DNA of 63,989 nt, filler included, from Dirinaria sp. TL-2023a (lineage: Eukaryota), in NCBI GenBank assembly GCA_051941275.1. It is 3 parts of 3 records of this genome, joined end to end, with 100 filler letters (N's around TTAATTAATTAA, not from the genome) between each part and the next. Parts side by side here need not be neighbours in the genome. Positions count along the whole stretch, not along the records: positions 46,102 to 63,989 come from JAVEBF010000408.1; 2 more parts are not named here. One strand, given 5' to 3'. Positions 22,955-61,690 of the stretch are shown piece after piece. The position numbers were made by a program, and so were the translations under genes. The notes under the pieces are model-generated. The model searched no databases and was not told where the DNA came from. It was given only the letters and a program-made list of their open reading frames with translations. Position 1 is the first letter of the stretch. Each line of letters begins with the position of its first letter.

Positions 22955-23054
22955 NNNNNNNNNNNNNNNNNNNNNNNNNNNNNNNNNNNNNNNNNNNNTT
23001 AATTAATTAANNNNNNNNNNNNNNNNNNNNNNNNNNNNNNNNNNNNNNNNNNNN
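22955..23054. other. Artificial contig spacer N44-TTAATTAATTAA-N44
   Basis: Exactly 100 nt, with a 12-mer giving stops in all six frames; identical structure at 46002-46101. Confidence 0.97.
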
Positions 23055-42254: not shown

Positions 42255-45200
42255 ATGACACTTTCCAGCACGAGGCTGACAGAAAGCTCACGCGATGGCT
42301 TCGCCCGTGGGACTAAGGCCGAGAATGTAATCCGTCTCCTTAGGCTACGTGCATGAGGCGATCTTACTGATCTTCGTTACCTCAACCACAGCACCGATCT
42401 TTGGGCTGATGCGGTCAGCAAGCTGAGCGATGACGACAAGCGCGACATCAACTTTAGTATCCCAGATAAGCGGGGGATCGTAGAAGATCTACTCGGACTT
42501 GCTAAATCATCCGAACAGAAAGCGCTTAGCAAGCGCTGGAAATTCACTCGGAAGAATGGGCAAACGGTGGTTTTAAGGGATGTCTTTGCCAAGATCGTTC
42601 ATTGGGTGGATCTCTTCAAGCAGGTTGGAGACGCTGCTGTCCAGTATGACCCAGGGCATGCAGCACTCCCGTGGGCTGGGATTCGGTTTATTCTGCAGGT
42701 TAGTGCCAATATTTGATGTGATAAGGTGCAGCGTCTGAGACGTGCGGGCAGATTGCGATCAATGACGTCGACAAATATGCTTCCATAGTCGAAGGCCTCG
42801 CTCTGATAGCTGAGCTTATCTGCCGTTATGCAGTTGTCGAGAACCTTTACCCTCTTTCTGCAACTGAGACGAGTCATGAGATGGAGAGAGCTTTGGTCCA
42901 ACTGTATGCGGCTATCTTAATTTACCTTTCGAAAGCCAAATCATATTTCGATCAAGGCTCTGCAAGTCAGTACGCCTATGTAAAATGGTTGAACTCAAAC
43001 TAAAAGGAACAAATAGAGCGAGCCATGAAGAGCGTACTCGTGGATAAGTCAGCCTTCGAGTCATATCTCAACAACATTCATGACGCAAAAGAGGATGTCC
43101 ACAGTTGTATGAACCTCATTGGCAGACACGGTCAGTCCCATTACCGTCAAGTTCCCTATAGTATCCACAACGCTAAACCAAATCGGCAATGAAATCTACA
43201 AACTAACCTGGGTTAACTAGATCAAATCGAAAATCAAGAGAGGTTAGAGCTTTTGTTGAAGCGGATGAACGACCCTATAAGCCGTATGGATAGCGCTCTC
43301 AAAGATATTTAAGATAGTCTAGATGGTAAAGTATTGAAAAGACTGTTTGAAAGTCTAAACTAACGACATGCAGCATCGAGACGTACCGAGATTTTAGGCT
43401 GGTTGTCTCCAGAACCGTACATTCAACATCACAACCAGGTAAAAAAGGATGTATTACAGGGGACCGGAACATGGCTTCTTTCGGATCCGGTTTACATTAG
43501 CTGGAAAAAGGAAAGCGCCTCCTCTATCCTATGGCTCAGAGGGATCCAAGGTTCTGGGAATAGTAAGCTTGTGTAAGTGGACAAGACATAAATGTTTGAT
43601 AAATACAATTGTGCTGATGATTCCAGATCCATTGTAATTGAAGATGCTATCAGAGAATTCAACGCCGGACAGAGCCCTAGTCCGGCTTTCTTCTATTCGT
43701 CACGGAATTCGGCCGAACCAATGCGATCAGACCCCAACGCTATTCTTGCCAGTATTGCTAGACAATTGTCAAATCACCAACCAGGATCCCCACTTCTCAA
43801 GCCGACGCTTGAGCTTTACCTAAAAGAGGAAGCGCAAGAATTCGCCGCCGGGAAATTACAGATCGAGGAATGCTGTGAACTTATCATCCAGCTTACTGGG
43901 GAATACCCTCTGACTACCATAGTCATAGACGTTCTCGACGAATGCGATCCGGCAAAGCGAGATAAGCTATTAGATTCCTTGGAAAAGATTCTCGAGGAGG
44001 CTCCCAGCTTGGTAAAGATTTTTGTATCAAGTCGGAACGATCAAGACATCGTGTCTCAATTGAGACATTACCCAAACCTTGCTATTGATTCAGATAGAAA
44101 CGGTGTTGACATCGCAAAATTTGTCCGAACGGAGACAAACCGACTTATTAAGAAACAGAAACTTCTACAGTATAGCCAGAAGAAAGATGAATTAGCAGAA
44201 GTCGTAATCAAAGAGATAAGCAAGGGAGCTGCTGGCATGTAAGTTGTTGTTCTTCTTTTCGCGAACTCATTGAAATCTTATCCAAAGGCTGAATGTCTTT
44301 TTCTTAAAGAGTCGAAAATTAAAGGTCTTGATTCTCATTATTTTGGCACATAGTAAAGTGAGCTTGCGATTTGACACCATGACGGTGGGGTTAGAATATG
44401 CCAATCAATCGTTACTTACAATTATCATATTTAACTTGTTCGTCGTAATAGTTGTCACTGCCTGAATCAAGGCGTTAAGGTCTTCAGATCTAGAGTCCTA
44501 ATAACTATGTTCTCAGGTTCCGGTGGGCAAGTTTGCAACTGCAATATCTCTGCCCATGCAAGCTGGATGCCGACATTAAGGAGCGTCTTGGACGGAATCC
44601 ACCCGATTTAGAATCTCTTTACTCCGACATCTACGAGATGCTTTCGCGCGGCCCGGCCCAGTTTGGAACTGGCGTTTTCAGGAACACACTCAGCTGGTTG
44701 CTATGCGCTCAAGAGACCTTGGAGATACAGGAATTCTTTGCAGCGGTATCAATAGTTCCCGGTCACGGCTTCGAGCAGGTTTCAAAAGATCAAGTCCTCG
44801 ATCTTTGCAACAACTTCGTCATCTATGACACAGAGCTAGACACATTTCGCTTCACGTATCTATCCGTCAGAGAGTTTTTAGAGAAGCGAGATGAATATAG
44901 CCACGAACGTACAAATGCCTTGGCTGCCGAACTATGTCTATTGCAACTCCTATGCTCAGCCTCAAGCTCTATATCCAAGGAGTTCCTATCTAAGCACGAT
45001 CCGAACTTATGTGAGAAGCCGCCAGATACTAAGATGCTCACTATTTACCCCCATTTGTATTGGCCTGAACACTCTCGACTAGCCGCTCACAAAAGGAGAT
45101 GCGGTAGAACAAAAGCTCTTTTGCTATTTTTTCTCTCCAACGATACAGACTTTGCTTCTCCGTTCTCAGTGTGGAGACGTGAGATCGTGCACCAGAAGAG

Positions 45201-46001
45201 ATGGCATTTAGATGTTAGGGATTTTCGCCCGATGGATCGATTAGGCGACGCAAGGTCAGCGCTGCTCAGTGCGTGCGCTTTCGATTTCGCCGAATTTATA
45301 GAGAATCAGGGGAAAGGCTTCAGTCCCCAAATGGATCTTGTCACTAGCGCGGGTGATAGCATGTTATGTGTCGCCGTACGGCATTACAACTTCGATACAG
45401 TAAGAGCATTGCTAAAGCAAGAAGGCAACGAGAAAAACATCACAGAAAAAGTGCTTGCAGAGGCAGCAAAGAAACATGAAAGAAGTGATATTCTAGCTTT
45501 CCTTTTAAATAAAGGAGGCGGAGAGATTAAAATTACAGAAAAGGTTGTCAATGCTGCAGCAGAAAATTTATCCCGTGAGTGCTTGGCACTTCTCTTAACT
45601 TATAGAAAATGTGAGATCAAGGTTTCAGGAAAATTACTCGAGGTTGCGGCAAGGAATAGAAGCAATTTTGCCATCACACTGTTACTAGATGAACGAGGCG
45701 ATGAGAGCAAAATCACGGAAGCGGTTGTGGAAGCTGCAGCTGGAAATCGTTATACAGAGAGCGTCATGGCCCTGCTTTTAGCTCGTCGAGGCGAAGAAGT
45801 TCAGATCACAGAGAAGATACTTGTTGCAGCGGCATATTCAGCATATGGTTTCCGAATGATGAAACTGCTATTTGACCGAAGAGGCAGTGAGATTCAAATC
45901 ACAGAGGAGGTGCTCATAGCCGCAGCACAAGCCTGGGGAGGTCAAGACATCATCGGAATGCTGTTTGATCGACGAGGCAGTGAGATTCAAATCACAGAGA
46001 A
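42255..46001 (+). pseudogene. NLR-like gene: NWD/NACHT N-terminal helical domain, NACHT NTPase and C-terminal 31-aa ankyrin-like repeats; premature stop; truncated by the gap
   Basis: FKQVGDAAVQYDPGHAALPWAGIRFILQ; GTGTWLL; P-loop GIQGSGNSKL; Walker B IVIDVLDEC; KIFVSSR; GM/FRWASLQL; in-frame TAA at 43310-43312; start codon uncertain. Confidence 0.8.
45430..46001 (+). repeat. Tandem coding repeats of about 90-93 bp (xIxITExVxxAAA...LLxxRG)
   Basis: About six units; the last two share GAGGCAGTGAGATTCAAATCACAGAG exactly, 93 bp apart (45881 and 45974). Confidence 0.85.
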
Positions 46002-46101
46002 NNNNNNNNNNNNNNNNNNNNNNNNNNNNNNNNNNNNNNNNNNNNTTAATTAATTAANNNNNNNNNNNNNNNNNNNNNNNNNNNNNNNNNNNNNNNNNNN
46101 N
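46002..46101. other. Artificial contig spacer N44-TTAATTAATTAA-N44
   Basis: Same 100-nt structure as 22955-23054. Confidence 0.97.
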
Positions 46102-46556
46102 GACGTAGACTTATGCGGAGGTGCATGTATGTATCCTAGACGCCCCCGGGGCATAAGGTATTGTTCCTGCGCGAACATGTAGAGAGGCCGGAGATCCCAG
46201 CTCAGACCCCCTCATATTGCTAATTTATGTAACTTATGATAGTAGAGGTGTATCTGATCTTTCGCGTGAGCAGCAGGCTGAGTTGGTGATTCTCAATTGC
46301 TGTACTCTTGTGTACCTTTTTATAAAAGCGGGTGCGGATATCGAAATGGGTTACGAGGAATGAGAGAGTCTTATGGTTACATTCATGTCGGATTTGGCTA
46401 GGGATCTAACATGGAAGGCACGGATTGCGGTAGGTAGCTGTAAATACATTTGATAAATATTTCACGCGTGAGTCCTTTTCTTTTGGTTTTTCACATGACG
46501 AACATAGGATCAATATAATTCTACCGGTACCCAGGGCCACCTTACTTGCCTCATAT

Positions 46557-49500
46557 TTAGCAGCGATCCAGAAGCGTCGCATACTTAGTAAACTCCTCAT
46601 CGCCTTGCAACATCTCCAGCTCCTCGTCATTGGTTCCCATCCCAAGCTCCACCCCACCATCGTCTCTCATGGGATAAATAACCAGGAACCGAAAGCGCCT
46701 GTGCCCGCGTTCAACCTGTGGGCGCATGGCGGCGGGAGAGCCTCCGTCGGCGAAGAACGCATCCCCGAACGAAATCTCGCTCGTGGAGAACAGCATCAGA
46801 TTGGAAATCATGGCGTTCACCCCCGTGAGACCTGCGCAGGCGATGCTGAACCGGTTATGGTGATGGTCGGGCAAGGACTGCAGGAGGGTAAATGTGTCGT
46901 GGACAAGCGAGGGCGTGATGCGCGCGGCGGCCTCGCGGAGGAGATACGCGATGCTTCCGACGCTCGTTTTCGGCGAGCAGAGGGTCTCGACGGGCATATT
47001 GGGCCGATTCAGTATCAGCATGCTGCCCATGTACGATGATGGCAACAGAGAAGAGAAGTAGGGACGGCCGTCGACGGGTAATTCCAGGATCGACGTCTCG
47101 TGGGGTCCAAATGTTTCTCCGCGGAATTCCTTAGCCGCACGATATCGTGCCTTGATCGCGGAGCGCCAGAAGAAGGCTTGCACAATATCACTGATAGAGG
47201 TGATAGCCCCCTTGGCCTCTGGGTCGGCGAGGACTTCTTCTTTGAGCTCCTGCACCTTCTCGGGCGGAATCAAAAACAGGGTACTGCTCAGGCCATCCTG
47301 AGCAGGGGTGGGCGGCCATGCAAACTTCCGAGGGAAACTAGGTGCTGGAGGGAGAATTCTTTGCTTTGGAAGGCGGGATTTTCCGATCTCAGATGTGCCT
47401 TTTATATGATTTTCAAGGGGTTCCTCTGGGCGTTCAAATGGCAGAAAGCCCCATACAGCAGGATCTACCTCAGAAGCTGGTCGAGCATAGCCTTCTTGCT
47501 CGTACAGGATTTCTGGTAAGCTGTGATTGAAGCTCTCCGGGTCTAACCAGCTGCATGTCGCTGACACATCACCTTGAACATAACGGCAGCTTTCAGCCCA
47601 GACTTTAAGAGCGACCATAACACCAATGCCATCAAGGCAGGAGTGGTGGAAGTTTGTGGCGAGGATACAACCGCCTTTGACGAAGTTAGCTTGTGCGATC
47701 AAGATATCGGCGGGCAGCGGCGGAAATGGGTTCCCTCCAAGGACAAGTTCATCCATGAATACCGAGGGTACGAAGCCCGCATCTCGCAATTCCTCGAACG
47801 GCGGTAGAATATCAGACAGATCCTTATAGGCCAGCTGCCTTGGTACCGTCGGAAAGCCCGTACTATGGTCATTCGAGGAGGCCGAAGGTGGAAGAGGGGG
47901 AATGGTGAGGCGGAGGTCGCCGTTCCTATAGTCAATCTCTTGTTCCGAGCAATCCATCATTTTGCCGTCGAGGGCTGGAATTAGTTGCATTGTGCGACGG
48001 AGACCCTCTTGTAGATTCCCAAATGCTTGTTCGAAACTGATCCCTTTACGTAGAGCAAAGAAGAAGTTCAATCCCATGTAATGGTTGAAGTTCACGTAGT
48101 CAAATGGGTTCAATTTAAACGATAGGCGCGTCTTGTGTTTGTCTATCATCCTTCTCATCTTGGCCAAATCGTCGTTAGCAAGGTCGTCTGAAGCCGTTCC
48201 GTTTGTCTTTTTCGCCTCATCTGCCAACCGTGCAAGAGCTCCAGCGAACTTGGCGAGGGTCGGATTTGCGTAGAGGTGTCGAGGAGCAAGTTGATCCTGT
48301 AGCCCCATACCGGTTCGAATAATCTTGACAGCCCGCAAGACAAGAAGAGAGTCCAGCCCGAGAGTAAAAACGTCGATATCTGGCGGGGCTTCGCGAATCG
48401 AAGGCAATAAGGAGCCGAGTACGTGGCGGATCGATTCCAAAATTGATCCAACCGAACTCATATCAATTGTGACAGCATCCGAGTCCTCAACTCGTGAATT
48501 ATAGAAACGCTCAATATAGTCGGCATAAAGTTCTAGGGTGGCACGTCGCTTCACAGTTCCTTTATCTGTGCGGACAAAGGGCTTGTCTGGTTCCGCAAAC
48601 GTAATGTAGTCTCTTTGTAGCTGGTTTTTATGTAGAGATAGCGTATTCGCCGTTTCTACTGTTGACCATATGCTGTCAAAAAGCTCGTTGTCTCTCGATG
48701 ACGGATCTTTCAACTCGATGAGCAGGCCTGCCTGTGGCTTCGCAGTCCCGATCTGTGAGGCAATGCTGCTTCAGCTATAGGGCGCTACTTTCCTAGGGGG
48801 ACTTAGGCAGAGCTTGAATGGGCTTACTTACTACAAGGCAGCCTTCGACTGCGGGATGCGTTGTGACGAAAGCCTCAGTGTCTAAAGGTGATATTTTATA
48901 ACCGTTGGATAAGACAACTGTATCGTCGCTTCTTCCCTTGAAGGCCCAAAGATTTGGCTTAGTCGGATGCTTGAGATATAAGTCTTTAAGGTTGATGGAT
49001 TGCTTGGCTGGGAATGTGTGGAAAATGCCCTGAAACAAGGGCCAGTGCTTGGTGCGATGTACCCAATGCTCATATAGATCAGGCTCTACCTCTCTAAACT
49101 CGAAGCCGGAGAAAGGGTGAAAGGCGAACCAGAGCCAATCCTCTCTTTCCACCACCAGATTACCGATAAAAAGACCCTCTGTTGTACCTGTCAAGTTCAG
49201 AACTCTGATCACTTCATTTGCTTTGCCAGCAGCAATTGGACTGACGGGACCTTAAGAGCAAAAACGTTAGCGCCAGGATGGCGAGGGGAACAACTGTAGA
49301 AAGAACATGCGTACCGCCAGATGCACAGATAAATTTCGATGACCTGAACTTGGCCAAGACGTCCGGAGTCTCGCCCAGCTCATCGACAAGTGATGGAACC
49401 ATACTCCAGATATCGATTCTTCCATGGTTTGCGAGAGACTCCAAGAGGTTCATATTAGGTAGCACCCCGGCAGGTCCTAAGGTGCAGTGCAGGCCGAAGA

Positions 49501-50478
49501 GCGAGGGCAAAAGGATGTCCATAATAACACCGGCACCCTTGGAATTCCAAAGGTCATGCAATTAGCTCACAGCTCTCTGTTACAGTTCCCCCGCGGGGGG
49601 GGGGAATACGTACGTGACTCATGGGAAATGATGAGTATATTCTATCGCCTTCCTTCCAAAGTGATGTCCACGGAGCCAACCCATTGTCGCCCTCAGTAGG
49701 TGGAAGCAGCCGTACCGCATCCATGGTACCGATCAGACCATGAGTCCACGAAACAGGCTTCGGCACTCCCGTGGTGCCCGAGGTATGCAGGACGCAGAAT
49801 GGGTCTTGGATAGCTTCATCAAACGTCTTTTCATACGGGAAAGGCTCGGTAGATTCAGCATCGAGTAGTTCGTCGATTTCAGGGATATCTAGAAGTTTCA
49901 TAGGGCGTCGCTGCAGGAACTCTTCCACCAGAGGAAGACAGGGCTGCTCTCGGGGTTTGACCCAAATGTTGCATTTCGCCGCATCAAGGACTGCCAACGC
50001 CCCTTCACTGTTATTCTTGGGAGAAAGAAACAAGGCCTACCCGAAATTAAAATCAAGCGACATCGGCTTGCTGAGCCTCCGCTATTTGTTAACGTGGTAT
50101 TGAACAATTGTTACTTACAGCGTAACCAGCCTTGACACACGCGTAGGTCAACAGAATATGTCGAACATCATCTGAGTATAGTCAGTGAATGAGCTAGAAC
50201 GACAATATCGAGCTTGAAAGTTTTCTTTCCAACTCACGTGGACCAATATAGCCCACAGTCTGGATCAAGGTGGGTTTCCCAACTTGGTCACAGAGCCACC
50301 AGGCGGTTGTGTCAACCGCCTTCGCAAATTTGCGAGCAGATATATGGCGAAATCCATGGGAACGGTCGGAAAACGCCGCCACTGAGTATATAATGCGATC
50401 TGGCTCGGCAGAAGCCAAGCTGTCCAGGATCTGAGGAATCAGCCTCTTGCCATACTCCGTCGAACTTTTCACTGCCAT
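46557..50478 (-). CDS. NRPS-like enzyme: adenylation, thiolation and CoA-dependent transferase (condensation-like) domains; resembles the C-terminal part of CrmA-type ICS-NRPS hybrids
   Basis: Starts MAVKSSTEYGKRLIPQILD; A-domain VLHTSGTTGVPKP, SSFPMSH, GTTEG, DLY...FKGRSDD, RTDKGTVKR; T-domain DVFTLGLDSL; transferase FHHSCLDG (HxxxDG), LPVDGRPYF; the introns checked splice in frame. Confidence 0.9.
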
Positions 50479-51573
50479 TGTACCAATTCAGAGGAGGATG
50501 CTGGAACAACGACTGGTAAGTCAGTATGCTGCGGAGGGCAAATTCTAGAAGCAGGGAATTGTCAACAGTGGCTCGGATGATGCACCCATCTATATCACCA
50601 CGCTCAAGACACAAGGACACACGAGGGTGCAGGGGTATGACATCGTTCCGCCCATTACCAATCCATAATTTCGGTAACATAATGCAACTGTCAATCAGAG
50701 ACGCTGGGTTCGACGGGACGAGGTCGCCTGAGTTCCTCTGCGAGTTTTCGGCCGCGTTGGAAACTTCCAGTGCGGTATCCAGCAAGTCCAATGTAAGCGG
50801 CCCGGTTTGATCCTGCCATGCAAATAGCGGAATAATCGTCCGCCATGATGAAGATCCTCTACGAACGTGCGTTACGTGTAACATCGTGAGTACGTGAATC
50901 GGAATGTAGTAGCCGCCTCTTCAAGCCTAGTGTTGAGACTAAATGATTGAAAACTTGCGCATCTGAAGAGATCCCGCGCTTCAACATTAGCGTGCGGAGA
51001 TTCTAACGGGGATATCACAGGTATTTCGGTCACAAAGTAGAGTAATGGGATTGACCACTGCCTAATCATCCCTCTGTCCGACCTTCGACTGTAAGCGCTG
51101 AGGTTAGATGACGGCGGCGGCGGACAATGGAAGAAGCTGATCAGGCGAATTGCGAGTGGTCCTGTGGATCCGTGGGCACCCGCACTTCCAAAGCCGCAGG
51201 CCACTTCCATACGGCTGTCAGTAGTATCAGCATTACGAGAAACACATAGCAATGGCTTCAGAATCTGGTCAAAGATGTTCGTCAGACCCACTCCATTATC
51301 AAGTGGATGAAGTCATACCCCTGATCCCAGGTAATTGTATTACTCTTACGTTGTTCTGAGGCCCTTTGCAAACCCATGAATGGCTCATCCCGGAATGTTT
51401 AGCCGTATTGCCTTGTTGAGGAAGATGGCGGTGGAACGGATTCTTAGCCACCTCATGTTAAGTAGCTGGCTTTCACTCCGCTCGTCCTTTGCAAAGTTTT
51501 TACTTTTCGACTCACAGTATTTGATACTTGATCGTCTTCCGACTTCAAATTTATCCAATCCAACATCTCCATC
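50479..51573. promoter_or_regulatory. Divergent (bidirectional) promoter region between the NRPS-like gene and the ICS-ABC gene
   Basis: Head-to-head ATGs at 50478 (-) and 51574 (+), 1.1 kb apart; no credible ORF between them. Confidence 0.6.
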
Positions 51574-54500
51574 ATGCAGTCTGTTCCTCAACCCACAAAC
51601 ACGACCAATGGGCTTGCTTTGGATGACGGGAAGTCCTCCCATGCCTCGCGTGCTACGACAGAGATGACAGAGACTTCGAACAAGGTCTTGGATATAATCT
51701 TCGAATACGCCCTCAATAAGTTCAATGACTATATCGAAAAATTCGCGGCGGGCAGGCCAAGGTTCTTGTCAGTCATCGACCGGTTTGTCACAGCGCAGAC
51801 ACGGGTGGAAATGTGCCTCCCAGCATTCCCGTTTAAGTCGGCAAACAAGGTTGAGAAGGTCTTTGGCATTCTACCCGATAAAGCCGAGGAATTGGCCCTC
51901 GAACGGTTGAATACCATGTGCATACGCATTGAAGATGTCTACCCACCTGGCGCCAAACTCACGATCATATCGGACGGCCTTGTTTACAATGGTTCGTCCA
52001 GCACCAATCAAGCCATCTCTCTGAGTATGAGCCGCTTGCTAATGTAGACTTTTGATGTTGACAGATCTATTGGGCATTCCAGATTGCGATACGTGGGCCT
52101 ACGGAGAGGCTCTACGCAAAATGGCTGTCCAGAAGGAGTTCACCCATATTGATTTTTCCAGGCTTAGAGACCTAGTCAGTTTCCCTCTGCCAGAGAGGCT
52201 AGAAGAGATAACATACGTCGCCAATGCCACTAATTTTCGCCGATTCCTCTTCAACAAATACGGCGATGATAATCTCGACATCGATCACGAAATCGCCACG
52301 AATCTCGATACACAGTTGACTTATCTAGGATATCGAAGATTCCTGGAGTCAGACTTGCGATATATTTTCCCACTCGGCGGAGATAGATCGAACAAACGCT
52401 ATAAGAATGACGTGAAGTACCTCGCCAAGCAGATGCTAATCAGAGGATATGTAAGTGTACTTCAATCGCTCCGTGATTACTCTAATGAACCTTCCCAAAC
52501 AGGCTTTCGCGGGGGCGGTCAAATTTTCCTTTCCGAAGCATCTACGTCTTTCCATCCATCAGTCTATGGGCGAGCACAAGGTATCCATGAGTCTGCTTAA
52601 CACCAAAACCGGATTTACGACCCCGTGGCATTGTAGCGTCGCTTTGATGGCAGATGGCGAGTGGATAAGCGGCACAATGGCTGGTTTTAAGAAAGACGCT
52701 ATGCTGGAAATCGTGTACGAGAATGGCCGGCCCAGCTATTTTCAGGAGAAGACGCGCGAGCTCCGTGAGTCTATTGACGGCAAGAAATCAGCAAGCAATC
52801 AAAAGCCTTCAAAAGCTATTAATGGGCTCTCTACCGGCTTCGCCTCCGGCGAGGATCCCTCTATCGAAAAGTCCGTGGAAAGGGCGGAAGAGAAGCTCCA
52901 AGACGAAAAGTCTACGCCAGCGAGTTCAATTTTAAATGATAAAAAAGAGATAAATATCACTGAGCTTGCAAGGACACTGTCATACCATGGAGTTAGGAAT
53001 GAGAAGGGAGAGCTCATCAACCCTTTCTTTGGAACTGAGCATTCTTTGCTGGACCCAAAGTCTAGCAAGTTCAGCTCAAAGGCATGGCTCGAAACACTTG
53101 TGAGCATTACGTCAAGGGATCCTGAACGATATCCCAAGAGAGTCGCTGGTGTAGCTTACAAAAACCTATCAGCTCATGGATTTGGGGAGCCGACGGACTA
53201 TCAGAAGACTTTTGGAAATTACCCCTTCAAAACACTCAACTTAGCCAAAAGGCTATTTGGGAAGGGAAGGAAGACCAGAATTCAGATATTGAAGGACTTC
53301 GATGGCTTAGTTAAAAGTGGAGAGATGCTTATGGTACTGGGAAGGCCAGGAAGGCAAGTGATGCTTTGGAGAAACAGCGAAAACATTGCTAACAAGCGCA
53401 GTGGCTGTTCGACACTCTTGAAGATCATCTCTGGAGAGACTGATGGTTTCCATGTCGCAGACCACTCTTATCTAAATTATCAAGGTATTCCGAAGGAGAC
53501 TATGCATAAGGATTTCAGAGGAGAGTGCATTTATCAGGCTGAGACCGATGTGCACTTTCCTCAGTTGACCGTGGGTCAGACTCTTGACTTCGCCGCTCGC
53601 GCTAGGGTATGTTGGATGAAGAATACTGGAGTGGATACTTAACGGACTGACTCTTGAAAGGCTCCCCGCAACCGCATGCCCGATGTCAGTCGAGATGTAG
53701 GTGCTCATAAACCATCTTCTCCATGGGAAACACTATGGAAATTGCCATTGTACTAAATCCTTCCCCAGATGTATGCGGAACATCTACGAGATGTCGTCAT
53801 GACAACTTTCGGTCTTAGCCATACGGGCAATACAATGGTCTGAGGCCTCCATGTATATTTTATTAGCTCCGACTGATATGCATATAAGGTTGGCAATGAC
53901 TTCGTCCGAGGAGTTTCCGGTGGCGAAAGAAAACGTGTCAGTATTGCAGAAGCGTATGTGAGCCCCCAGATTGGCATGTTCGTGGTCTTATTACTGATAT
54001 GTATTCTGCTTAGTGCTATTGCGGGCAGTCCCCTGCAGTGTTGGGATAATAGTACACGTGGACTTGACAGTGCCACTGCTCTTGAATTCGTGCGAACACT
54101 CAGGATCTCCACAGCACTGACTAAATCGACTGTGATCGTAACTCTCTATCAGGCTTCACAGTCTATCTATGATGTCAGTCTGACAAGTCGAACAATATTA
54201 CTGTACTAACGATCGAAGGTCTTTGATAAAGTTGCTGTACTGTACGAAGGTCAACAAATCTACTTTGGAGATATCCATGCAGCAAAACAATTCTTCATCG
54301 ACCTAGGCTTCGAATGCCCACCACGACAAACAACGGCCGACTTCCTCACATCCTTGACTAATCCAACAGAACGGAAAGTTCGCAAAGGCTTCGAAGGCAA
54401 GACTCCCTCTACACCAGGTGATTTTGCTTCTGTGTGGCGAAAAAGCGAGGATCGAGCACGTCTAGTCCAGGAGATTGAGGAGTTCGATGGCCAGTACCCC

Positions 54501-57500
54501 ATCGGCGGACCATCACTCGATCAGTTCAAGCACTCGCGAAAAGCTTTGCAAGCAAGATCACAGTGGGTTTCTGTTGATACCGTCGACCTGCGCCTATACT
54601 GACTCAAAGCAGGCGTATACAATCGCCGTACAATCTTTCGGTCCCAATGCAGGTTAGACTATGCGTCCGACGAGGATACCAGAGGCTGCGAGGAGATATG
54701 GCTTTGCTCATCATAAGCGTCATGTTCAACTCAGTAATGGCACTTGTTATTGGCAGCGTCTTCTACGATTTGCCGGACAACACTATTTCTCTTTACAGTC
54801 GTGGCGCTCTACTCTTCTTCGCGATCTTATTGGCAGCTTTCGCTAGTGCATTGGAGGTTCGTTCAAGATTAGAGCCCATAAAGCATCACTAACACAGTTA
54901 GATCTTAACTTTATACGCACAACGTCCGATCGTAGAGAAGCAGTCGAAGTATGCCTTTTACCATCCTTTTGCTGAAGCAATTGGCAAGTCGAGATTTCAC
55001 GATTTACTTGCTGTAGCTGACGTATCGAAGCATCGATGATCTGCGACTTGCCCAACAAGATCCTTACTGCTATTGGATTCAATCTTACTCTTTATTTCAT
55101 GACTAACCTACGGCGCACACCTGGTCATTTCTTTGTGTTCCTGCTCTTCTCATTCACATGTACACTCACGATGTCAATGTACTTCCGTTGTATTGCTGCA
55201 TTATCTCGGACGTTCCCACAGGTAAAGCCATCTTTCTACCTATTGTGCTTCCATGCTGACGACTCAGGCTATGGCACCAGCCTCTATCTTCAGTCTAGCT
55301 CTGGTTATTTACACAGGCTTTACAATCCCTACTAAGGACATGCACCCGTGGTTTCGATGGATTAATTACCTAAACCCTGTCGGCTATGCTTTCGAAGCAC
55401 TTATGATCAATGAAGTGCGAAAATCACATACGGATGTATTTGCCAAGTCTAACATAAGTCCAGTTTCACGACCGTACAATACCTTGTACCAAATATGTTC
55501 CACAAGGTAGGGGCTATGGCGACGTTTCTCAAAATGAGAAGATCTGTGCAGTCACCGGAGCTGCTGCTGGCGCAGACTTCGTTAATGGAGATACTTACCT
55601 GGCCGTCAATTTCGGTTATGTTGCTGATCATCTGTGGAGGTATATGTCCCCTTTTAAATGAATTAAAAAAACAATGGAAATTGGACTCTAAGAACGGACA
55701 GCTGTACTAATAGTTATCCTAGAAACCTTGGTATCATGATTGGTTTGATGACCTTCGGCTGCTTTGTCTATCTTATAGCAACAGAGTACATCTCAGCAAA
55801 GAAGTCCAAGGGCGAAGTCCTGCTATTCCGACGAGGTAGAGTACCACGTCTACAGCCAAAGCTTGACGAGGAAGCCAACGCCGATGACAGAGTCAACACA
55901 GAAACGCTAGCTCAAGAGAAGACGGCGCATGATGCCCCTGCCAGTATCCAGAAGCAGACTAAAGTTTTCCATTGGGATAGCGTCAATTACGATATCAAAA
56001 TCAAGGGCAAACCGCGAAGACTCTTGGATGATGTTGACGGCTGGATTATACCTGGAACACTGACAGCTTTGATAGTATGTTCTCCACAGGACAGTGGAAT
56101 ACAAGATTGCTAACAAGCATTTTTAGGGTATTACAGGAGCCGGCAAGACCACTTTACTTGATGTACTAGCCAATCGTCTAACGATGGGTGTCGTTAGCGG
56201 TGAAATTCTTGTCGATGGCCGAAGTCGAGATTCAGGTTTCCAACGCAAAACTGGATACGTTCAGCAGCAAGATTTGCATCTAGCTACATCTACCGTTCGA
56301 GAGGCCTTAAGCTTCAGCGCCATTCTACGACAGCCGGAAACTACTTCTCATGCTGAGAAGGTTGCATATGTTGATGAAGTCATTAAGGTTCTGGAGATGG
56401 AGGCATATGCTGATGCTGTGGTTGGGGTACCAGGAGAAGGTGCGCATCTAGACCAAGCTTACCCGCAGGGTATGGAATATTATATGCTAATGATTGCCAA
56501 GGTCTGAATGTTGAACAACGAAAGCGCCTGACTATTGGGGTTGAACTCGCTGCCAAACCTGCTTTATTACTCTTCCTTGACGAACCTACTTCGGGTTAGT
56601 AAGCATTCTATGTCCAAGCAGCTGATTTTTCTAGCATCAGATCATAGAGCAGGGGGACGCCTCACTAAGCCATGATACAGGTCTTGACAGTCAGACTGCT
56701 TGGTCCATCTGCGCCCTTCTCCGAAAGCTCGCCGACAACGGCCAAGCTATTCTCTGCACCATCCACCAGCCCTCAGCCATTCTGTTTCAACAATTCGATC
56801 GTTTGCTCTTCCTTGCTATGGGAGGCAAGACTCTCTACTTTGGTGAGATCGGTGATGATTCCAAGACTCTCACCAGCTACTTTGAACGTAATGGAGCTAG
56901 GCCGTGTGGTAAAGACGAAAACCCCGCCGAGTGGGTGCTTGAAATTACTGGCGCAGGTCCTGGCTCGGAGAGCACCCAGGACTGGCCAGCCGTCTGGAAG
57001 GATTCAAAAGAACATGAAGCTGTCAAAGCCGAACTTGCTCGTATGAAAGAAACGTTGTTTCAGCAGCCAGTATCCGTCAATGATTCAGACGCACTTCGGC
57101 CATTTGCGGTCCATTTTGGTTCGCAGCTCTGGGTTGTACTTATGCGAGTCTTCCAGCAATACTGGCGTACTCCCTCATACCTCTACTCCAAAGTCGCTCT
57201 CTGTCTCTTTAGTGTAAGTGCAAACCTATCTAAAAGTATTGCAGAACGTGTTTGACTCTAGCTCAGGCCATGTTCATCGGATTCTCCTTCTGGAAAACAC
57301 CCAACTCGCTTCAAGGACTACAAAACCAACTCTTCGCTGTCTTCATGCTTCTCACAATATTCTCCAACTTTTGCCAACAAATTATGCCTAACTTCGTGAC
57401 TCAACGCGCCCTCTACGAAGTCCGAGAACGTCCATCCAAAACCTATTCCTGGCAAGTGTTCATTCTGTCAAACATCATTATCGAGATCCTGTGGAACTCT

Positions 57501-58257
57501 GTCATGGCTGTGCTCGTTTTTGTAGGCTGGTACTATCCCATCGGCCTGCGCCAGAATGCCGTGGAGGCAGATCAGCTAGCCGAAAGAGGAGCGCTAATAT
57601 TCTTGTTTATTTTGACGTTCTTGATCTTCGCTGGGACGTTTACGAATATGGTGATTGCGGGGATTGAGACTGCTGAGGCGGCAGGAAATATTACGAACCT
57701 CTTATTCTCGCTTTCATTGATCTTCTGCGGGTATGCCACGTCATCCCCCATAACTCCTTTCAGCACCCTTTAATGTTTTCTGCTCCCCCCCGAGCACCAT
57801 TCTCCGAGGCGTCTATACTAACTCAGAAACCCCTAGCGTCCTAGCAACTCCCACCGCTCTCCCCGGCTTCTGGATATTCATGTACCGCATCTCCCCCTTC
57901 ACTTACCTAGTATCCGGCATGTTATCCGTGGGCCTCGCCAACGCGCACATCTCTTGCTCCAGTGAAGAGTTCTTGCATTTCTCACCCCCCTCGCCCTCAA
58001 ACTGCTCCACTTACCTCGCGCCCTACGTGGAAGTGCTTGGCGGCTACCTCTTACCTGAAAGCATGAACTCGACCACGGAGTGTGTATTCTGTAGCGGCAG
58101 CGAGACGAATATTTTTTTGAAGGGTGTTAGTGCGGATTATAGGGATCGATGGAGGAATTTTGGGATCTTTTTGGTTTATGTGATTTTCAATATCACGGCG
58201 GCTGTCGGGCTTTATTGGCTTGCGAGAGTGCCGAAGGGGAAGAGAGGGGGCCAGTGA
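51574..58257 (+). CDS. Apparent fusion protein: N-terminal isocyanide synthase (Dit1/PvcA family) plus full-length PDR/ABCG ABC exporter (NBD-TMD-NBD-TMD)
   Basis: ICS motifs [42 protein letters not shown] (exons 51574-51991, 52065-52450, 52503-). The same open frame continues into PDR N-terminus [13 protein letters not shown], Walker [37 protein letters not shown]2 [43 protein letters not shown] and MYRISPFTY, ending at stop 58257. Confidence 0.85.
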
Positions 58258-60251
58258 TGATACCTTCAGACGCAAAAATTCGGCCGGGCTGCAGTGGTCC
58301 TGCTACTGCGGGATATTATTACCACCATGGGCCAGGCGAACCTTGTCGAGTACAGCAGGAAGAGGCGAAGGAAGGCGACCCGGACATCTGATTTCTCACT
58401 CAACGCCAAGTCTTCATCGCGCAAGCACGTGACTTCTACACCCAATCAATCTACATACTATCCACAGACTGCCACACAAGTTTGGTTCGAGACATGTTTT
58501 TTTGCTTGACGGTGTATCATGTCATGTTTGTCGTCCATGATCTACTTACCGGTACGTATGCGGCGCAGGTAGTATAACGGAATTGCTGCACCAAAACAAC
58601 AGGTCACAGGAGACCACGAGGGTAAAGACAGGACTCCCACGTCTCCAAGGTTAAGCTCTTGATGATTCGAACGAATTAATATTACCTTCTAGAAGCACGC
58701 CATCCCATTTCGACGACTTTTGGCCACCGAATCCTGCTGCTGCTTTTTGTCATGGCAACTTATGCGCGACCAACCACATTCCTGCATAAAGTAGGAGCTA
58801 GCCGCAGTTTCTTTTTCGTCCACGAATTTGTCTTCCTACAAACGGGCATGGGCCACGGGAAGTCAAGCACCTTACGGTCGCCTTGCCATGTTTCGCGTGA
58901 TCTGAATCAATTTCCACTGGTTATTATTTAGTCTATCATCGATCATCGACATCCGCAAGATACTATTGGTCTAGGAGACCACCGCTCTGGACCAAAGAGA
59001 CCGTCGAGAGAAAGAATTCGTGCAGCAGAGCTGCAGCTACCTTTGACCCGATTCCTTGCACGAGCCAGTCAACCTCCGACCAATGCATTCCGAGTTCAGG
59101 GTATTCGGTATTGCGGACTTTCAAGCAGAGCACCTTCGAAGGAGAAATGTTGATCAGATACTGTCAGCTCTACTTCCAAGAGCTGCTCAGCCTCTCTCCT
59201 GGAAGTAGGACTACCATGCAGGGGAAACCCGACACGTGTATCCAATGAGCACCCTGCAGTCTTAATTTCCGGCGTAAATGCACAGAAATCTCGTGAAGCA
59301 GCTATCCAGTATCCACCCGATGTATGTGGTACCACGGTTGCACGCACCAAATACCGTCCTACGCAGTACAGCAAGAACGATCAAGACATTCTCAGCGTTT
59401 CAATCCAATATCAACGATCGTCTGCTTGCTCTATTATATGTTGCAATATCTTTTAATTCCTAAATCTAGTAAAACTCATCCAGACATTTGCGCGAAGCGA
59501 GAGGGATTGGGTGGTCCGGTTATGGGTTAAGTCGGGCGCCCAAAAGGTAACGCTACTATTCTGAAAAGAGCTAATCGAGACCCAGCAATTGCATCCTTGC
59601 TGCACGTCAAGTGCCATGGCGAGAATGAGGTTTTGTACGTGCTGCCGAAGAAATCCCTCGACCACTGACCAGCGTAGTAAGACACACTACACACCTTACA
59701 CGGGCCGTACCGATATCCCATACATAATCCTCAAGTACAGCCTTTCAGAGGCCGATTTCCTATTCTGTATCACAATGTGGCGTCACTCGGGATTTGCGCT
59801 GCCCTGTCCGTTGATGTAGACCGTTTCGATTAACCTTGCTATGTTCTGCAGTCATCGAACACCTTGCCTCTCCTCAGGCATGGCAAACTGCAGGGCCTTG
59901 TCTGCGCTTTTGGCAGGAGTGCAAGAGCTACCAGGACGCTGGTTTGACATTAGTAGATAGGCTTGCCCATTTTTAAACATTTTATCATTGCCTGGCGTTA
60001 TCCCTGTCATTGCATTATCTCCTTGTCAGACTGTGGGGATTTGCCCGCGGACTGTCTTCGATACTAGATAACCGAAGTGGAACCTGCCGGACTGTGTTAA
60101 TCAATAATGCTTGGATTAAAAACAATCCGCTAGTCCTCACAACATTTTACTGTGTTTCCTTGTTACCACGACTTCGACTTCAACTTCACCGAAAGAGAGA
60201 CATCAAAGTCCTCACTGCCCTGAAGGTTATCGTTCTGTCGAAGTCAGGATA

Positions 60252-61690
60252 ATGGAGAACGAGCTATCTGCCCTCCCCGCATGTAAGGAAAATCGAGGCA
60301 CAGTTCTTTTGTGGCTCGCTTGGACTCTGCAGATTCTTGCAATTATTGTGGTTTTTCTTCGAATCTGGTTGAGAAGGAAAATTAGGGATGGCATCAGCTG
60401 GGACGACTACTTCATTGTAGCCTCATTGGTAAGCCCATTCTGCGGTAGAGGAAGGCATGACACTCGTCCACTGGATAATTAACGATGAGTAGATAGATGC
60501 CATCATTGGAGTCGGGTTCATGACCAAAATGGTCAGAGCAGGTGCTGGCAAACACATCTACTGTCTGGCCCTGGGCCGGATCCCGGTAGCCATCCAGTGG
60601 AGCATCTATGCCCAGATTGTCAACAATATTGGGATTGGCTTGGTCAAAATCTCCGTCTGCCTATGCGTGCTAAGGGTCATTGACCGGGTCGGCAAATGGC
60701 TCTCTCGATTTCTCTGGGTTTTGATTGCTTTTGTCACAGCAAGCCATTTCGTGCAGGTCAAGCTCGCACCGGCTTCCGCTGCGGCTTTTGAATTAACGCT
60801 TCGCAGGTCATGCTGTTCCTGCTCCAGTGCAGACCTATGGCCGCAATATGGAACACCAGCATACACGGCCGATGCTTTTCCTCGCACGTAACCTACTTGG
60901 TAGGTTACATAGGGTTTGGTTCGTGATCCTGACGACACTGATCACCCTAGCTGCTGACGCCAAATCAAGGTCTTGACGCATTTACGGACCTTGTTTGCGC
61001 CGGCATACCGATTTTTGTCATCTATCGGCTCCAAATGAACACGCGTACAAAAGTTGCGCTTTGCTGCCTCATGGGGCTTGGTGTCTTGTATGATGGCCAT
61101 CGTTGCGGTTTTGATAATGGCGCATGTCAGGCTAACTTGGGTCCAGCATCGCGGGCTGTGCAATCGCTAAAGCGGCCACTTTAAAAGGAGTTTTCTCCAA
61201 GGATTACACGTGTAAGTCGCTTTGCTAAGGCTATTGCCTCCTTCATTAATATATGCTATCAGGGGGCATTACCAAGCCTGCAGTATGGACAATGTAAGCC
61301 CCTAGAACTGAACCATACCCATGTCCCTCATGACTGATAATCGACGCAAGCACCGAACACCTTCTCGGCATCACCATCGCATCATTACCAGCACTAAGGC
61401 CACTCTTCAAGTGGATCTTTGAGGTCGCAACGACTCAGCGCTCGGCGTCCAGCGGATTATCCTTTCGCAAAATGCACCGTTCCGAGCGGGGCGTCCACGT
61501 CCAGATCTCGTCCTTGGTTAACCGAGCGAGCAGCAGCGGCGGAAGAACGATTGCTGCGAACGACAAGGACATCACCAAAACCACCGAGCTACGGATCAGC
61601 ACAGAGACCGACCTGAATTATGTCCAAGAGCCGTCGTCCGCTTGGGCCACTCCTGATCGCGACCGACCGTTTGGGTATGAGCATGTCTAG
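60252..61690 (+). CDS. PTH11-like (fungal rhodopsin-domain) integral membrane protein without CFEM, multi-exon
   Basis: VVFLRIWLRR...ISWDDYFI; GAGKHIYCL; IGLVKISVCLCVLRV; LLQCRPMAAIWN; DAFTDLVCAGIP; EHLLGITIASLPALRPLF. Confidence 0.85.

Follow-up and report, generated by a model that had tools for sequence, protein, structure and literature searches.

The joining of an isocyanide synthase (ICS) to an ABC transporter within one protein has been in print since 2007 as MgAtr7 of Zymoseptoria tritici and FGSG_03735 of Fusarium graminearum, each described as a full PDR ABC transporter bearing an N-terminal dityrosine/pyoverdine (DIT1_PvcA) domain. In CrmA of Aspergillus fumigatus, an ICS, an adenylation (A) domain, a thiolation (T) domain and a transferase occupy a single polypeptide, a layout that was not found at the locus described here. 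That locus lies in a 63,989-nt stretch of DNA from Dirinaria sp. TL-2023a (assembly GCA_051941275.1; hereafter, the window), where an ICS-ABC fusion gene stands head-to-head with an A-T-transferase gene of the nonribosomal peptide synthetase-like (NRPS-like) kind. The window consists of three contigs strung together through N linkers with a short spacer, at 22955–23054 and 46002–46101, and both genes sit on the 17.9-kb contig C408 (JAVEBF010000408.1), which starts at window position 46102. Dirinaria is a lichen-forming fungus.

Split arrangements of crm-type genes have also been described. In gene cluster family (GCF) 8 of Nickles et al. 2023 (PMC10153163), a crm-type NRPS lies next to a monodomain ICS, and the authors suggest that the two fused in some lineages, i.e., that the split form preceded the fusion; their survey recognizes only three ICS architectures, and the term "ABC" is absent from its main text. 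The split F. oxysporum cluster FOXG_09769–09773 is reported to be bound by Mac1 and copper-induced (PMC11563359). CrmA variants with a transporter domain appear in Won et al. 2022 (PMC9381783), whose main text does not use "ABC" and whose Supplementary Data 1 enters several ICS-ABC proteins as CrmA homologues. An ICS-NRPS cluster has been tied to Fusarium virulence, its product being left unnamed in the accessible part of the source (PMC13071329). Our literature searches found no paper joining Atr7 with an isocyanide, although subscription papers and supplements may state that link. Split ICS clusters in lichen fungi are reportedly the subject of work by Nickles and colleagues from about 2025, which our searches did not locate and which may cover part of what follows.

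Two head-to-head genes carry the modules of CrmA

The Dirinaria locus is likely to encode, in two genes, a crm-type isocyanide pathway that belongs to the MgAtr7 subtype and for which we propose a mechanism and a history below. Its parts, in window coordinates, are these:

46557–50478, minus strand: A-T-transferase (NRPS-like) gene, 1,184 aa; exons 50478–50238, 50171–50119, 50036–49614, 49537–49315, 49250–48832 and 48752–46557
48234–48431, minus strand: T domain, aa 561–626, with Ser588 in GLDSL
46590–48080, minus strand: TRI101-like/Transferase domain, aa 678–1174, with HxxxD at His823/Asp827
50479–51573, no strand: divergent intergenic region, 1,095 bp, a putative shared promoter
51574–58257, plus strand: ICS-PDR ABC fusion gene of the MgAtr7 type, 20 exons, 1,849 aa, with two GC-AG introns (53354–53401 and 54984–55030)
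51775–52703, plus strand: ICS domain (DIT1_PvcA, aa 68–335), exons 1–3
52755–52940, plus strand: 62-aa linker, aa 353–414, low-confidence in the structure model
52941–58257, plus strand: full-size PDR (ABCG) transporter, in the order nucleotide-binding domain (NBD) 1, transmembrane domain (TMD) 1, NBD2, TMD2, with Walker and signature motifs found

The A-T-transferase gene, modeled by hand, runs from an ATG at 50478 to a stop at 46557 with five GT-AG introns and zero internal stops, and its product is identical to the public record P0127 (source label Dirinaria sp.). Pfam domains AMP-binding, PP-binding, TRI-like_N and Transferase were present and DIT1_PvcA was absent, in agreement with the original prediction of an intact A-T-transferase gene that lacks an ICS and is transcribed divergently from one about 1.1 kb away; the start codons of the two genes face away from each other across 1,095 bp. 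By sequence, the catalytic motifs are intact throughout (ICS core, A-domain motifs, T serine, and the transferase HxxxD, which lies in an HHSCLDG motif at aa 822–828). Of the columns that 69 fused CrmA-type proteins share at 95% conservation or more, the A-T-transferase keeps 382 of 407 and the ICS 105 of 108. Several of the A-T-transferase departures bunch near aa 1090–1098 of the transferase, and its acceptor may therefore differ from that of CrmA. The closest other A domain in the Dirinaria genome shares 37% identity with this one, and no second ICS was found in that genome.

The ICS had also been predicted to be joined to a transporter, and an in-frame fusion was indeed found. The C-terminal part of DIT1_PvcA and the ABC_trans_N domain share a single open exon (52503–53353), the transporter is a complete PDR ABC protein, and the gene runs from an ATG at 51574 to a stop at 58257 through 19 introns without internal stops, giving 1,849 aa when the RNA-supported acceptor at 54612 is used. 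It extends 5.4 kb beyond the end first proposed for the locus, which fell inside the linker. The public record P0001 (partial; source label Dirinaria sp.) retains introns and ends at 893 aa; that model therefore truncates the fusion. The AlphaFold model of P0001, which carries two retained introns, is weak overall (predicted local distance difference test score, 56.6). In it, the ICS fold resembles PIsnA/PvcA (template modeling score, 0.82–0.85 by target) and the transporter part is Pdr5-like, the linker (354–428) has low confidence, and there is no usable ICS-NBD contact.

One lichen sample of a close relative (one study, three runs) provided RNA contigs, mostly 95–99% alike, for comparison with the locus. 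The splice joints listed, 15 out of 25, confirm four of the five A-T-transferase introns and nine of the 19 ICS-ABC introns and set the ABC intron acceptor at 54612; a tenth ICS-ABC intron is compatible with the loose end of an RNA contig. ICS exon 1 lay outside the RNA coverage, a gap that carries no weight. The relative thus transcribes and splices both genes in one thallus, which is co-occurrence rather than co-regulation.

An artefact of the gene model, or one frame that yields two proteins, could also give the appearance of a fusion. Among the RNA pieces listed (there are 100 others), none bridges the ICS and the ABC domain, the longest there (52513–52920) covering the end of the ICS and the linker, and some annotations have two separate genes (Blastenia P0347/P0015 and Exophiala P0284/P0091). 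However, the junction is one open exon, and no Met occurs from aa 335 to aa 543 of the fusion, hence there is no start for an independent ABC protein. The matching open exon is present in two metagenome loci, L022 and L023; the linker of the relative has a 15-nt insertion that keeps the frame; and both domains occur together in 28 of 120 listed protein matches to the junction exon. We regard an artefact of this kind as highly improbable.

Spread of the fusion and of its partner

The junction-exon search was made among longer proteins and gave 404 matches, of which the 120 mentioned above were listed; the 28 with both ICS and ABC include the window's own record. ICS-ABC fusions are present in at least 23 other named species among the listed matches. 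These species belong to five classes, Lecanoromycetes, Dothideomycetes, Eurotiomycetes, Leotiomycetes and Sordariomycetes. The partner A-T-transferase lies beside or near the fusion in at least 13 of the 23 (11 with an adjacent tag or accession and two with tags 2–4 away on a same-length contig), and L023, an independent contig, has the same head-to-head pair 3.1 kb apart, so that the synteny expected in relatives was indeed found. Only 2.1 kb of upstream DNA is available at L022.

Other arrangements were seen as well. In L023, an MFS gene (L023:3–827) follows the A-T-transferase, in a position reminiscent of crmC. At L024:150–900, a close relative of the ABC moiety keeps most of the linker; an upstream ICS is absent, as is any Met in the open frame that precedes the ABC, an apparent loss of the ICS from a fusion. 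Lone ICS records, P0237, P0245, P0247, P0251, P0259 and P0270 among them, are nested inside ICS-ABC clades, some with linker-like tails, which suggests that the ABC moiety has been lost repeatedly. A DJ-1/PfpI gene (P0367/FGSG_03734), possibly isocyanide hydratase-like, flanks the Fusarium ICS-ABC genes; none was found on contig C408, and the Dirinaria genome has two weak matches on other contigs. The Xylographa pair P0239/P0148 clusters with Sordariomycete lone pairs, apart from other lichen fungi, as would an old paralogue or a horizontal transfer.

Lineage and direction of change

Trees were built under LG+G4, without a mixture model, from hand-picked subsets of the fetched proteins (ICS, 111 and 47 rows; A-T-transferase, 72 and 37; ABC, 46 and 27; joined loci, 30). 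Identity to A. fumigatus CrmA (P0157) is 67% for the ICS and 65% for the A-T-transferase, and in separate phylogenies, as had been proposed at the outset, both halves fall by sequence inside the crm lineage and not in other, non-ICS NRPS-like families.

All ICS-ABC fusions and all fused CrmA proteins form one ICS clade (support 97, and 99/99 in a second tree whose bootstrap had not settled), with lone ICS branching outside it, first. An approximately unbiased (AU) test rejects a single clade of split ICS against fused and outer rows at p=0.039, for a group that was defined only after the earlier ICS tree had been seen. In the joined tree, for which four lone pairs were chosen as root, fused CrmA proteins form a single clade (96/98), in which Lojkania P0073 branches first, and in the A-T-transferase trees, which have a weak root, CrmA is nested among the partners of ICS-ABC fusions. 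The ABC tree groups the fused ABCs and five lone ABCs in one clade (100/100). These five nest with lichen ICS-ABCs (100/99), and the fused ABCs form one clade in 0 of 200 bootstrap trees. In Lojkania (KAF2270327/8) and Amniculicola (KAF2001389/8), the accession of a CrmA-type protein is consecutive with that of a lone ABC of this clade, an adjacency read from accession numbers, which do not give gene orientation.

The sequences between the domains add to this picture. The 78 outer rows, which include a fusion fragment (P0366), have leaders of 16–143 aa (median 56) ahead of the ABC, whereas those of the five lone ABCs measure 1–7 aa (2 and 7 aa in the CrmA-adjacent ones). ICS-ABC linkers match a PDR-leader profile weakly, filling the top 20 of 107 rows, and the linker is probably the former N-terminal leader of the ABC transporter. 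The original prediction called for a comparison with the ICS-A linkers of CrmA proteins. Scored with a profile built from 11 ICS-ABC linkers, the one of Lojkania reached 32 bits, where the best of 1,000 shuffles gave 9.6 and the next of the 68 fused linkers 8 bits.

We lean toward a history in three steps. A lone ICS and a lone A-T-transferase would be ancestral; the ICS would then have fused to a downstream AtrD-like ABC gene; and a single inversion of promoter, ICS and linker would have placed the ICS before the A domain so as to form CrmA, with a leaderless ABC left as its neighbor. A single event of this kind accounts jointly for the head-to-head gene order, the transfer of the linker and the missing ABC leader. 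The present locus looks, with moderate support, like a pre-CrmA state rather than a product of fission: both routes had been offered for it, and the ICS, ABC and joined trees, the linker profile and the ABC leaders make fission the less likely of the two and fit the pre-fusion state better.

The limits given above for the 99/99 tree, the p=0.039 test and the two accession pairs weigh against this order of events, and so do several further results. In AU tests, a single clade remains acceptable for the lone A-T-transferases (p=0.454) and for the fused ABCs (p=0.067 and 0.08). CrmA, two ICS-ABC groups and one lone-ICS group meet at an unresolved fork in the joined tree. The Lojkania linker scores 0.0 bits against the PDR-leader profile (rank 60 of 107), and in metagenome locus L025 the 10 kb upstream of a leaderless ABC contain neither an ICS nor an A-T-transferase. 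Fused CrmA next to an ABC was absent from all five loci that a metagenome scan gave.

The opposite history, in which fused CrmA and a neighboring ABC were ancestral and an inversion split CrmA and put its ICS onto the transporter, would work equally well mechanically, since the inversion can be run in reverse. The groupings that it requires are those left standing by the A-T-transferase and ABC tests, and a weak likeness of ICS-ABC linkers to PDR leaders is expected for fusion in either direction. Yet lone ICS lie outside the clade of CrmA and ICS-ABC, with the AU result cited; the CrmA-adjacent ABCs should have retained a leader, which they have not; and the CrmA of Lojkania carries a linker of the ICS-ABC type. 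We therefore think the opposite history unlikely and retain the three-step order.

In its broadest form, this history gives the CrmA megasynthase, as found in Aspergillus and other moulds, a single origin from an MgAtr7-type locus via one ICS-swapping inversion; it makes MgAtr7-type transporters the first half of a crm pathway, tethered to an exporter, and a fourth ICS architecture present in five ascomycete classes; and it takes Lojkania as an intermediate with a transplanted linker and a leaderless ABC. We give this whole an even chance. If true, it would supply MgAtr7, an orphan since 2007, and its orthologue in Fusarium with a concrete pathway and cargo, add an architecture absent from the three classes of the 2023 ICS survey, and offer a rare base-level route to a fungal megasynthase, a domain swap between neighbors by one inversion around a divergent promoter.

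Divergent promoter and proposed pathway

The expectation of copper induction found no local support. The 1,095-bp region contains no TGCTCA Mac1 core (chance expectation, ~0.75), and scans of this promoter for copper and iron motifs gave none above chance. The same hexamer occurs three times in 3 kb of L023, four times in 2.1 kb of L022 and at 0.69 per kb in the window. Copper-fist genes are present in the Dirinaria genome. Because the promoter lacks TGCTCA, the copper control of CrmA cannot be transferred to the present locus.

Two other features of the region are candidates for control. CGGAAT-N-CCG sites, a pattern picked after the sites had been noticed, lie at 50828, 50900 and 51391, so that the intergenic region holds three of the five in the window; they may point to a putative zinc-cluster (Zn2Cys6) regulator. 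A 28-bp block around CGGCCG (50739–50766), on the A-T-transferase side, is common to the L023 promoter (L023:7682–7708) at E 2e-4, compared with 0.12 for the next best of 26 pieces, and is a candidate regulatory site.

By analogy with CrmA, the ICS would convert an L-amino acid (valine in CrmA) to an isocyano acid, which the separate A-T-transferase would adenylate and load onto Ser588 for transfer through His823 to what is probably a polyol acceptor. The ICS would be tethered by the flexible 62-aa linker to the N-terminus of the PDR transporter; since that N-terminus is cytosolic, the enzyme would sit at the membrane. Either the conjugate or the free isocyano acid would leave through the fused transporter and serve to inhibit microbes or to bind metal. 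With the ICS as the first step, the free acid is no less plausible a cargo than the conjugate.

The fusion might instead be self-contained, making and exporting free isocyano acid for iron/copper handling, as proposed for MgAtr7, with the A-T-transferase as a side branch that competes for the intermediate. A first-step enzyme on an exporter would suit export of its own product over that of a later conjugate; MgAtr7 is reported, second-hand, to act in iron homeostasis; and valine isocyanide itself is described as antibacterial. However, the A-T-transferase accompanies the fusion in the species counted above, head-to-head in L023, and the promoter has no SreA-type site. The FGSG_03735 mutant is reported to have no iron phenotype and no involvement in iron regulation. 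We hold a self-contained fusion to be doubtful.

The Fusarium mutant phenotype also counts against the two-gene pathway that we prefer, as does the missing Mac1 core. At this locus the pathway is predicted from genes and from the RNA of the relative. In one of the 23 species the ICS-ABC and A-T-transferase records are on different contigs, and in nine a partner was absent among the 120 listed of 276 A-T-transferase matches.

Surroundings of the locus

Contig C408 ends 456 bp past the A-T-transferase stop, and on its 17.9 kb we recognized no homologues of crmB, crmC or crmD. Downstream of the ABC gene, 60120–61690 encodes a PTH11-like (Fung_rhodopsin) membrane protein. The 3' third of the ABC gene is covered in the close relative by antisense RNA:

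56556–58533 (ends approximate), minus strand as inferred from the introns: spliced antisense RNA with minus-strand GT-AG introns at 56586–56665 and 57546–57698

These contigs read through a plus-strand intron, word depth is raised there, and the longest open reading frame is 40 aa; in this one sample the RNA is probably a spliced non-coding antisense transcript.

Everything to the left of 46002 belongs to other contigs, across an artificial N linker, so that adjacency over that point is not real; TauD, the ankyrin/NACHT gene and the others there were rejected as cluster members. A NACHT-associated (NPHP3_N) and ankyrin/DUF7104 repeat gene, cut by a contig end, occupies 43592–46001 of a separate contig. 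Positions 1–41800, on the other two contigs, hold genes of housekeeping type (Peroxin-3, RFX, ThiF, PIG-X, Cut12, TauD, phosphatidylserine decarboxylase and PAP2).

Comparison with known systems

The ABC fusion had been singled out as the distinctive part of this locus, a view that does not survive the existence of the same architecture in MgAtr7 and FGSG_03735 and in the 23 other species. Neither the split crm locus nor the ICS-ABC fusion is new, as split Fusarium loci and the MgAtr7 type are already published; what may be new is how the two are linked and in which direction.

Full-length identity of the Dirinaria fusion is 66% to FGSG_03735 (P0374) and 61% to Z. tritici XP_003849789 (P0357), which by species and architecture would be MgAtr7 itself, and the ABC moieties fall in the same clade (100/100). 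The Dirinaria fusion differs in coming from a lichen fungus and in having an A-T-transferase partner seen head-to-head. GCF 8 and the F. oxysporum split loci resemble it in placing an ICS gene near a separate crm-type NRPS-like gene, FOXG_09770 (P0223) being 63% identical to its counterpart here, but have a monodomain ICS. The CrmA-MFS fusions of Dothideomycetes (Won et al. 2022) likewise join a crm enzyme to a transporter; in Bipolaris P0232, the MFS follows the transferase of an intact CrmA, whereas in Dirinaria the ABC follows a lone ICS. Compared with CrmA of A. fumigatus, the locus has the same four catalytic modules at 65–67% identity with conserved motifs retained, but divides them between two polypeptides, with the ICS carried on an ABC transporter and a promoter without the Mac1 core.

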